Shown here one piece after another: positions 50,152-50,875 of a stretch of 64,000 nt of DNA; the stretch's first letter is position 1, and every line of letters begins with the position of its first letter. The notes beneath the pieces were generated by a model. The model was given only the letters and a program-made list of their open reading frames with translations, ran no database searches and was not told where the DNA came from. Both the position numbers and the translations under genes were made by a program. Location of the stretch: contig CAVXWP010000001.1 of NCBI GenBank assembly GCA_963765495.1, positions 1,024,001 to 1,088,000 of the forward strand. The letters run 5' to 3'. Source of the DNA: Blastocatellia bacterium. GTDB taxonomy: Bacteria > Acidobacteriota > Blastocatellia > UBA7656.

Positions 50152-50234
50152 TGAATAAGAGAGAAGTTGGAACGGTTAAGACGCGAGTAATGTAATACGC
50201 CCGGCAGGACTCGAACCTGCGACCTACGGATTAG

Positions 50235-50831
50235 CTTCCAGCATCACGTTTCCGTGACCTCCCTCATCGGGGTTGCTGGCTGGACCATTTCTTCGCCATT
50301 TCAGGCGGCGGGCGTATGGCCTCTACGCATCCCTTCATCCAAGGTTTGCTCGGAGTTGTCGTAGGAGGTGTACTCCCTTACGAGATTCTCCGAAATAGCC
50401 CGCTCCAGTTCTGCGGTTTTACCGAGGATTTGCAGTCTTTGAGAGAATTTGCCTCTGCACCGGGCAGAACAACAGGTAAAGGCAGTGCCTTTTTGCAAAA
50501 AGGTTTGACCTTTTCTTCTCTCGAAGATCAGACCACATTCCGGGCATTTCAAAACAACCATTTTTCGTCCGTGTTCGAAGTGATGTTTGCGAACGTGTTC
50601 GCCGTTGTTCATCACCTCAAGGTTTTCAATCCGGTTGTCTTTCTTATCCCGGTTTTTATGGTGCACAACTTCATCGGGATTGAGAAGCCTGCCAAGGTGA
50701 TTCTCGACTACGACTCTATGTTCCAGCACATAGCCATTAGCAGAAGCCTGCGGATGTCCAGAAACAAGAGCGTAGTTGTAATCTCCCTTGTGGATGATCT
50801 TCTCAATCTTCCACACAGAACGCTCCTATTG
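50235..50831 (-). ncRNA. Group I self-splicing intron (IC3-like), 597 nt
   Basis: 5' exon ends in U, intron ends in G; P1 CUUC/GGAG with U.G; P2 GUUCUGUG/CGCAGAAC; P3 GCGGGC/GCCCGC; P4 UCGGAG/CUCCGA; P7 GGCCAU/AUGGUC with AAGA J8/7; UCACG-GAAA-CGUGA in P9. Confidence 0.9.
50301..50816 (-). CDS. Intron-encoded HNH homing endonuclease with C-terminal Cys cluster
   Basis: [31 protein letters not shown]...CCSARC. Confidence 0.9.
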
Positions 50832-50875
50832 AAGTCCGTTGCTCTATCCATCTGAGCTACGGGCGCAAAATAAAA

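Follow-up and report, generated by a model that had tools for sequence, protein, structure and literature searches.

A tRNA-Arg(UCU) gene split by an IC3-like group I intron with an HNH endonuclease gene in a Blastocatellia genome

In a 64,000-nucleotide (nt) stretch of contig CAVXWP010000001.1 of the Blastocatellia bacterium assembly GCA_963765495.1, in the following called the window, we found a tRNA-Arg(UCU) gene that is interrupted within its anticodon by an insert of 597 nt. Judged from the sequence, this is very likely a functional intron-split tRNA gene, in which an IC3 ribozyme carries a gene for an HNH homing endonuclease in the loop of its P2 helix. The parts of the gene, in positions of the window, are:

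50866-50196, minus strand: whole tRNA-Arg(UCU) gene including the insert (ARAGORN with introns allowed)
50866-50832, minus strand: 5' exon, tRNA positions 1-34, ending in U34 (ARAGORN with introns allowed and exon join)
50831-50235, minus strand: IC3-like group I intron of 597 nt, after U34, last base omega-G at 50235 (ARAGORN, covariance model)
50234-50196, minus strand: 3' exon, from C35 to the discriminator A, CCA not encoded (sequence, ARAGORN, exon join)

The split tRNA gene and its ribozyme core

The minus strand of the window reads GCGCCCGTAGCTCAGATGGATAGAGCAACGGACTT, then the 597 nt of the insert, then CTAATCCGTAGGTCGCAGGTTCGAGTCCTGCCGGGCGTA. With introns allowed, ARAGORN called a tRNA-Arg(tct) in which 597 intron nt separate gactt from ctaat, placing the junction at U34^C35. 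When the exons were joined by script, the same program without the intron option returned a 74-nt tRNA-Arg(tct) with a canonical cloverleaf, in which the 5' exon contributes 35 nt for tRNA positions 1-34 and the D loop has one extra base. Default ARAGORN and the Rfam tRNA model found only the adjacent tRNA-Pro in the window and missed the tRNA-Arg. A first-pass annotation, made from the letters alone, had described two halves that rejoin as a tRNA-Arg with anticodon U^CU around an insert of 597 nt, preceded by a U and ending in G. It had expected standard annotation to miss this tRNA and had proposed a tRNA search on the joined exons. All of this is borne out by the present calls, including the coordinates and the omega-G at 50235.

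The genome assembly consists of 17 contigs and is 97.94% complete. Without introns, 49 tRNAs were found in it, among them no uninterrupted Arg(UCU), and Leu(UAA) and Asn(GUU) were absent as well; each of the three is present only as an intron-split gene. The codon AGA accounted for 7.5 per 1000 codons and occurred in 1845 of 1923 crude open reading frames (ORFs) of at least 400 amino acids (aa), and the HNH ORF of the insert itself has 6 AGA codons. The first-pass annotation had considered that this gene might be the only AGA reader, and the genome-wide check indeed found no other Arg(UCU) in the assembly. With a sole AGA-reading tRNA and AGA in most ORFs, splicing is therefore very probably essential. 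It is very improbable that the tRNA-Arg gene is a dead pseudogene with a non-splicing insert and that AGA is read by a gene in the unassembled 2% or so. In an assembly of this contig number and completeness tRNA genes can be missed, and splicing is predicted from sequence, but the core helices are intact with changes that are compensatory and not disruptive, and the exons still form a regular tRNA. Moreover Leu(UAA) and the only Asn(GUU) likewise exist just in split form, so that the organism clearly relies on the splicing of tRNA introns.

The only Leu(UAA) gene of the genome (G000) lies at G000:C12:68327-68642 (L062) and has a 229-nt intron at U34^A35. The only credible Asn(GUU) gene, at G000:C6:42435-43402 (L001, L063), has an 893-nt group I intron at 35/36, with an ORF that looked LAGLIDADG-like by eye. 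Most of the other 26 intron-allowed ARAGORN calls look spurious. Among the calls were two of the same size for 'tRNA-Asn(att)' (G000:C7:378484-378728 and 680235-680479), each with a 146-nt intron, which probably represent a repeated element.

Within the insert the following elements were assigned:

50828-50823, minus strand: internal guide sequence UAGGAG, intron nt 4-9 (read from sequence)
50821-50814, minus strand: P2 5' strand GUUCUGUG, intron nt 11-18, contains the GTG start at 50816-50814 (8 base pairs (bp) with 50415-50408)
50415-50408, minus strand: P2 3' strand CGCAGAAC, intron nt 417-424 (pairs with 50821-50814)
50408-50232, minus strand: ribozyme core as matched by covariance model R1, from P3 through omega-G and on into 3 exon nt (cmsearch)
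50403-50398 / 50313-50308, minus strand: P3, GCGGGC/GCCCGC
50393-50388 / 50355-50350, minus strand: P4, UCGGAG/CUCCGA
50383-50379 / 50363-50359, minus strand: P5, UCGUA/UACGA
50376-50373 / 50367-50364, minus strand: P5a, GGAG/CUCC
50344-50341 / 50335-50332, minus strand: P6, CCUU/AAGG
50328-50322, minus strand: J6/7, GCGUAGA
50321-50316 / 50288-50283, minus strand: P7, GGCCAU/AUGGUC
50307-50304 / 50297-50294, minus strand: P8, CGCC/GGCG, loop UGAAAU
50279-50274 / 50243-50238, minus strand: P9, CCAGCA/UGCUGG, encloses P9a and P9b
50271-50261, minus strand: P9a
within 50258-50243, minus strand: P9b hairpin with GAAA loop

In this arrangement GAG of the guide (50825-50823) forms P1 with exon CUU, including the U34.G7 wobble, and UAG of the guide (50828-50826) forms P10 with CUA of the 3' exon. 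The 8 bp of P2 enclose a loop of 398 nt which holds most of the HNH ORF, and the intron ends in AAG with omega-G as the final base. The minimum free energy fold of the 3' 193 nt alone recovered P4, P5/P5a, P6, P8, P9, P9a, P9b and most of P3. All helices named in the first-pass annotation (P1, P2, P3, P4, P7, P8, P9 and P10) are thus found, with P5, P5a, P6, P9a and P9b in addition.

For a search that did not draw on the window, a covariance model (R1; 41 base pairs in 188 positions, spanning P3 through omega-G, with P7 left out) was seeded with 5 ORF-less introns of relatives only, the window sequence not being in the seed; P1, P2 and P10 lie outside the model and were judged by script and by eye. 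On both strands of the 64-kb window (128 kb) R1 gave a single match, at 50408-50232 on the minus strand, with 112.7 bits, an E value of 5.4e-28 and the full model (1-188) aligned, which is far beyond chance. The complete ribozyme core thereby occupies the 3'-terminal 174 nt of the insert, and the 3' part of the ORF overlaps it. R1 also matched Arg(UCU) 36/37 introns from another family (126 and 98 bits) and the tRNA-Leu(UAA) intron of the same genome at its classical U34^A35 site (70.3 bits, E 4.6e-17). This match to the genome's own tRNA-Leu(UAA) intron identifies the insert as an IC3-type group I intron, and the proposal of the first-pass annotation that a group I intron sits at 34/35 of a tRNA-Arg(UCU) stands on the R1 match and on this homology. 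The insert thus combines a U.G wobble at the 5' splice site and an omega-G with core helices that covary and with homology to an accepted member of the group.

What speaks against a group I intron is the Rfam model RF00028, which gave no match to the window intron, be it at the gathering score (50 bits), at E<=10 on 861 nt (50100-50960) or genome-wide. Nor did the same model match the loci of 9 relatives at E<=0.1 or, with the limit relaxed to E<=10, the tRNA-Leu(UAA) intron of this genome. On a 331-nt stretch from an ORF-less relative, searched by itself, it aligned end-to-end with the same helix assignment (26.6 bits, E 5e-5), and on the genome's tRNA-Asn intron it reached 35.2 bits (E 7.7e-7). 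Because the tRNA-Leu(UAA) control fails too, the miss on the window carries little weight: it is a failure of sensitivity for this subgroup and says little against group I. No bacterial sequence is among the RF00028 seeds (10.1101/2020.01.27.920355). The covariance test suggested in the first-pass annotation thus came out in two parts, negative with RF00028 and positive with R1 from the relatives, and the lack of a covariance-model hit, which had been named there as grounds for dismissal, would with RF00028 lead to a wrong rejection of the intron. An insert of another kind, such as a free-standing HNH cassette, an insertion sequence-like element or a protein-spliced intron in the anticodon loop, would agree with the RF00028 result; it is scarcely credible in view of the full-length R1 match, the covarying P3/P7 pseudoknot, the homology to the tRNA-Leu(UAA) intron, the presence of both U-1 and omega-G, and the failure of RF00028 on an intron of the classical site.

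Covariation was assessed in a model-guided alignment of 20 ORF-less introns and the window intron, to which P7 was added separately as a pseudoknot. Standard pairs made up 92.5% of 973 cells versus 80.0% after shuffling and 34-43.5% with the partner slid, changes on both sides occurred in 29 of 47 pairs, and 0 of 500 shuffles reached the observed value on any of five measures; as a reservation, alignments of this kind, including that of the HNH-bearing cores below, were fitted to the model structure except at P7 and have related rows, and their shuffle counts are not probabilities. P3, P4 and P8 were 100% paired, and P7, which is absent from the model, was 95% paired with a switch between CG and UA (12 versus 9). 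Compared with the relatives, the window helices differed in a compensatory manner in P3 (GCGGGC/GCCCGC versus CGAUGC/GCAUCG), P4 (UCGGAG/CUCCGA versus UCGGUG/CACCGA) and P9 (CCAGCA/UGCUGG versus ACCAC/GUGGU).

The HNH gene and its overlap with the ribozyme

The insert holds a sole long sense ORF, which is wholly intronic:

50816-50301, minus strand: HNH endonuclease ORF, 171 aa, GTG start, intron nt 16-531 (Pfam HNH_3)

The encoded protein matched Pfam HNH_3 with an E value of 1.5e-11 and 44.1 bits (cut-off 24.8) over aa 33-76, in agreement with the intact HNH ORF reported in the first-pass annotation. It is followed by a Cys4 zinc-ribbon-like segment (about aa 91-120, CxxC...CCxxxC) with weak zinc-finger/zinc-ribbon matches. 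Among 20 aligned homologues H52, H53, N61, N65 and H78 were invariant, and H74 was present in at least 90%. An AlphaFold2 model built with 20 homologues had a mean pLDDT of 84.8. Residues 135-150, encoded by P3-P5, were modelled as a helix and a strand (block pLDDT 87), and residues 155-171 fell below 50, the C-terminal 17 residues being predicted to be disordered. The best match in the PDB by Foldseek was I-HmuI (1u3e), a weak one with E 0.022, probability 0.93, a TM score of 0.34 and 18% identity over 146 columns; sequence searches of the PDB with the HNH protein gave weak zinc-finger-like matches only. With an HNH domain above the curated threshold and a location inside an intron that is predicted to self-splice, the gene has the features of an HNH homing endonuclease gene (HEG).

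Gene and ribozyme are closely interlocked. The AGGAG of the guide stands 6 nt before the GTG start and resembles the Shine-Dalgarno (SD) sequence of the ORF, the start codon lies inside the P2 stem, and the last ~38 codons run through P2'-P3-P4-P5-P6-P7-P3'-P8 to a TGA stop in the P8 loop. The ORF crosses J6/7 in a frame other than the one that gives a UAG stop. The receptor-like CUCUAAAG of ORF-less relatives contains an in-frame UAA, and at this place the window has CUCGUAAGG; by eye, the receptor of the CCUAAG/UAUGG type is replaced by CUCGUAAGG/CCUACGA in the window, so that the in-frame UAA is gone.

The core-encoded part of the protein is conserved. Its C-terminal motifs AISxNL(V)RE(Y)...DNyE(Q)T...GMRRGHTP are encoded by P3, J3/4, P4, P5, P4', J6/7 and P7, and their conservation in the homologues implies that these must be intron-borne with the same overlap. 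Residue x of AISxN and residue y of DNyE are encoded across a covarying P4 pair, which in DNA was AU in 6 cases, GC in 5, UA in 2, and CG, GU and another combination in 1 each. Both motifs were present in 98 of the best 120 homologues, and in a tally that rests on amino acids and not on DNA, 68 of these 98 had E-S, G-P, V-T or A-A, as base pairing predicts, and 13 had E-P, which it does not predict. The covariation of a P4 base pair thus appears to be visible as covarying amino acids in the proteins. Given a guide that would double as SD sequence, a start codon in P2 and codons that run through P3-P8, splicing and translation are likely alternative fates, and a single RNA probably either folds and splices or is translated, not both at once.

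Distribution of the intron and of its endonuclease genes

When 61 related genomes were searched at the DNA level, the split gene turned up again, this time with far shorter inserts. In 5 genomes the insert is an ORF-less intron of 214-259 nt at the identical site; these introns start with (C/U)AA..(A/G)GGAGCC, end with ..GGU(A/G)(A/G)G and have a textbook IC3 layout. The 5'-junction pattern matched 54 of the 401 class genomes, a tally which includes the unpublished genome G245 and for which a reversed-pattern control matched 6 times; by family, with the genome of the window set aside, the counts were 13/52, 13/220 and 27/87. Such numbers do not agree with the rarity implied by the first-pass annotation, and the window intron is not a near-unique oddity. 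In genome G263 two Arg(UCU) 5' intron junctions were seen on different contigs (C27:27708-27735 and C160:40518-40545). Two genomes of another family of the class (G049, G045) have a related IC3 intron at 36/37 of tRNA-Arg(UCU) (L022:1317-1604 and L023; CUUCU^AAAC...ACG^AAGCC), which gives two insertion sites in the same isoacceptor within one class.

Altogether 42 copies were extracted, 21 of 214-259 nt and 21 of 436-668 nt; the U and omega-G features were part of the search pattern and are not independent evidence in these copies. Among the long copies, 14 had a PDDEXK_5 ORF (Pfam E about 1e-39), truncated in 3 of them, 6 had a LAGLIDADG ORF, one had no ORF, and only that of the window had HNH. 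All PD-(D/E)XK and LAGLIDADG ORFs sit in the P6 loop, and the full-length ones take the UAG within the conserved J6/7 GUAGAG as their stop codon. In the 41 other copies P2 has 9 bp that vary in many compensatory ways, and its loop measures 8-11 nt in 40 copies and 49 nt in one; the window copy alone has a large loop. The truncated PDDEXK_5 ORFs (L006, L076, L084) together with the ORF-free intron of 436 nt (L068) look like a degeneration series. In 5 of the 6 LAGLIDADG introns (L008, L065, L071, L074, L079) the frame is open upstream through P2-P5 to alternative starts at intron nt 14-33; such an open frame near the AGGAG of the guide may be due to chance or may be another instance in which translation begins at the guide.

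The HNH gene had another distribution. Within the 401 class genomes the best match to it had 49% identity over aa 2-87 and lay elsewhere in the genome concerned. A scan of species-representative genomes with the single protein found only distant HNH_3 genes, of which 26 loci had the HNH core only and 0 were in a split tRNA. Some of these distant relatives (L040, L042-L048 of Actinomycetota; L033) adjoin tRNA-Glu/tRNA-Gln pairs or sit in a tRNA array, with unsplit tRNAs, and look like free-standing genes that favour tRNA neighbourhoods. A phage collection yielded 161 records; just 2 spanned 80% or more of the query, and no record was a close match. A large protein database, with 851 relatives at E<=1e-5, overturned the reading of the HNH gene as nearly unique; the top 120 of these relatives were 155-282 aa long with 88-100% query cover and 54-79% identity. 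Metagenome contigs, scanned with the alignment of homologues, contained 522 relatives, and 80 loci were retained. A full-length R1 core directly after and overlapping the HNH ORF was present in 17 of the 80, the 3' exon began with CUAA in all 17, and the host was a split tRNA-Arg(UCU) in at least 12 (9 by ARAGORN, 3 by junction search).

For 13 of 18 HNH-bearing introns, namely those in which the start-motif search worked, P2 had 5-9 bp with compensatory changes and a loop of 395-407 nt, an ATG or GTG lay in the P2 5' strand, and GGAG of the guide stood 5-6 nt upstream of it. The ORF stopped 45-126 nt into the core in 12 of these 13, and one copy was truncated (L127, 78 aa). When the 18 HNH-bearing cores were analysed alone, 94.7% of cells were paired (75.4% shuffled), 29 of 47 pairs showed compensatory changes, 0 of 500 shuffles reached the observed value, and P3, P7, P8 and P9 were 100% paired. 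This covariation argues that the ribozyme of the HNH lineage is under structural selection in spite of the coding overlap.

A tree of 41 cores placed the window's core in a clade of 7 rows, all HNH-bearing metagenome introns (support 99/96), and 17 of the 18 HNH cores in one clade (90/77); all 18 formed one group with a support of only 65/14. ORF-less introns from the taxonomic family to which the window's genome belongs fell elsewhere in the tree, and ribozyme core and HNH gene travelled together. This clade, together with the absence of the HNH family from the other 400 phylum genomes sampled, points to a horizontal arrival of the whole HNH-intron unit. Co-conversion of exon sequence during homing was considered as a further trace: the window's anticodon stem ACGGA/UCCGU equals that of metagenome locus L108 and differs from CCUGC/UCUGC of the family relatives, which is suggestive, but stems vary widely among HNH copies and no claim is made.

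It might also be that the intron splices and that the HNH gene is a stranded passenger, no longer active and decaying in a cycle of gain, degeneration and loss. The sampling of 401 class and 401 phylum genomes revealed no other carrier; decay is seen in the same intron family (3 of 14 PD-(D/E)XK genes truncated, the ORF-free intron of 436 nt, the HNH gene of L127 at 78 aa); and the disordered C-terminal residues would fit as well. We consider this rather unlikely, as the ORF is intact at the full family length of 171 aa with the conserved His and Asn present, metagenome homologues of the same length have 77-79% identity, and the layout of SD sequence and start is conserved.

Neighbourhood, proposed course of events and known systems

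Two further features lie upstream of the tRNA-Arg gene:

50876-50952, minus strand: tRNA-Pro(UGG), 9 nt upstream of tRNA-Arg (ARAGORN, Rfam)
50994-50966, minus strand: promoter-like site TTGACC-17-TAGAAT upstream of tRNA-Pro; weak, 1 found versus 1.1 expected by chance

The order Pro-Arg was also found in the loci of 7 relatives, and the two tRNAs are probably co-transcribed. A gene for a tyrosine recombinase/integrase (Phage_integrase, E 6.8e-31) lies divergently at 51126-52253 on the plus strand, 174 nt past the tRNA-Pro 5' end. It may be the edge of a genomic island that adjoins the two tRNA genes. On the other side, a gene at 48871-50151 on the minus strand begins 45 nt downstream of the 3' end of tRNA-Arg; its product has two PLD domains and is cardiolipin-synthase-like, and the interval between the two genes showed no terminator-like site.

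We propose that the split gene is transcribed with tRNA-Pro, possibly from the promoter-like site at 50994-50966. In the Pro-Arg precursor the guide UAGGAG would pair with CUU (P1) and CUA (P10), while the core P3-P9 would fold at the 3' end of the intron. An exogenous G would attack after U34, and omega-G (50235) would then direct exon ligation to tRNA-Arg(UCU). A ribosome that binds to AGGAG of the guide and reads P2 and P3-P8 would preclude this folding. The HNH enzyme, if made, would cleave or nick tRNA-Arg(UCU) genes that have no intron, at a site close to the anticodon, and repair would then copy the intron into them. More tentatively, and with less confidence than in the splicing of the tRNA, we suggest as a possibility that the HNH introns of tRNA-Arg(UCU) genes make up a large lineage, apparently not yet described, in which ribozyme and HEG form one dual-coding unit. 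The guide would be the ribosome-binding site (RBS), the start would be locked in P2, and more than 100 nt of the core (P3-P8) would encode conserved and partly structured protein. Splicing and translation would then act as a mutually exclusive switch, which may limit the nuclease and protect an essential tRNA.

Several observations weigh against this course of events, next to the RF00028 result and the reservation on covariation given above. P1 has just 3 bp and P10 2-3 bp, and the 398-nt insertion in P2 together with translation through the core could slow folding. A full-length match of the HNH family was present in 1 of 401 class and 1 of 401 phylum genomes, both times the genome of the window, and in view of its absence from the other sampled genomes this lineage appears to bear no sign of recent homing. 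The HNH clade could in part be an artefact of a shared coding constraint on the overlapped columns. Contigs of soil metagenomes and metatranscriptomes give no usable evidence on splicing, the joints being indistinguishable from intron-less genes of other organisms: exon-exon joints in RNA runs, among them one that coincides with the predicted junction (2 contigs of X16), had 90% likeness and were not used for or against splicing. In soil DNA run X1, which may be the source of the assembly itself, contigs were identical to the window over 50228-50475 and 50499-50663, and no run contained half of the sampled words. An RNA contig of X16 was ~94% identical to the core at 50269-50413 and comes from a relative, not from this locus.

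That bacteria have IC3 introns in tRNAs and that introns can carry HNH enzymes has long been known. The classical bacterial IC3 tRNA introns are those in tRNA-Leu(UAA) of cyanobacteria and plastids and in tRNA-Ile(CAU) of Azoarcus. Like these, the window intron is located in the anticodon loop with a 3-bp P1 that involves anticodon-loop bases, has a compact core of about 175 nt (P3-P9) and has a GAAA loop on P9b that faces a receptor-like P5 region; with the tRNA-Leu(UAA) intron it further shares the position after base 34. Unlike them, it has tRNA-Arg(UCU) as host and a 398-nt insertion in P2, whose ORF continues into and through the core. The group I intron of alpha-proteobacterial tRNA-Arg(CCU) also interrupts an arginine tRNA, but it is inserted at 36/37, whereas the window intron has the isoacceptor UCU and the site 34/35; we know of no endonuclease gene in the alpha-proteobacterial intron.

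Among endonucleases, I-Ssp6803I is a PD-(D/E)XK enzyme of the Synechocystis tRNA-fMet intron. There, as is predicted for the window, a tRNA group I intron has a homing endonuclease that is aimed at the anticodon region, and relatives of the window intron carry PDDEXK_5 of the same family (Pfam E 6e-40); the window enzyme differs in being HNH and in lying in P2 instead of P6. I-HmuI, the nicking enzyme of the DNA-polymerase intron of Bacillus phage SPO1, is likewise an HNH enzyme encoded in a group I intron, but its host is a protein-coding gene of a phage and not a bacterial tRNA, and to our knowledge it does not share codons with the catalytic core. In the td intron of phage T4, RNA structure controls translation of the endonuclease I-TevI. 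Similarly, the RBS of the window endonuclease would be sequestered in an RNA structure, and its translation into the core would be expected to compete with splicing; unlike in td, the SD sequence would be the guide and the start would lie in P2, so that competition would be with P1 and P2 themselves.

On the Synechocystis system, PMC3984707 cites Bonocora & Shub 2001. A survey that raised the intron-interrupted bacterial tRNA types from 4 to 21 lists the tRNA-Leu(UAA) and tRNA-Ile(CAU) introns as classical types and names the tRNA-Arg(CCU) intron 'Arg.5Ug' (10.1101/2020.01.27.920355), and Arg(UCU) position 3 may well be among its 21 types. Within the literature as covered here, incompletely and with few subscription journals, we met no account of an HNH gene residing in a tRNA intron of bacteria, of a tRNA-Arg(UCU) 34/35 intron by name, of a P2-nested ORF overlapping the core, or of three endonuclease families in one tRNA intron family.

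For annotation, the finding means that three tRNA genes of this genome, those for Arg(UCU) and Leu(UAA) and the sole one for Asn(GUU), escape default tRNA finders as well as Rfam at its gathering scores, and that genomes of the class, with the Arg intron in 54 of 401, would be scored as being without essential tRNAs. One intron family that at one site has taken up three unrelated endonuclease families in two loops represents a natural system for the study of HEG invasion, co-adaptation and decay. In the HNH lineage the overlap of coding sequence and ribozyme core is unusually deep, and the conflict between translation and ribozyme folding, a subject of long discussion, should be directly testable in a construct of about 600 nt. 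A compact HNH enzyme that presumably targets the anticodon region of a tRNA gene would furthermore add a new specificity.

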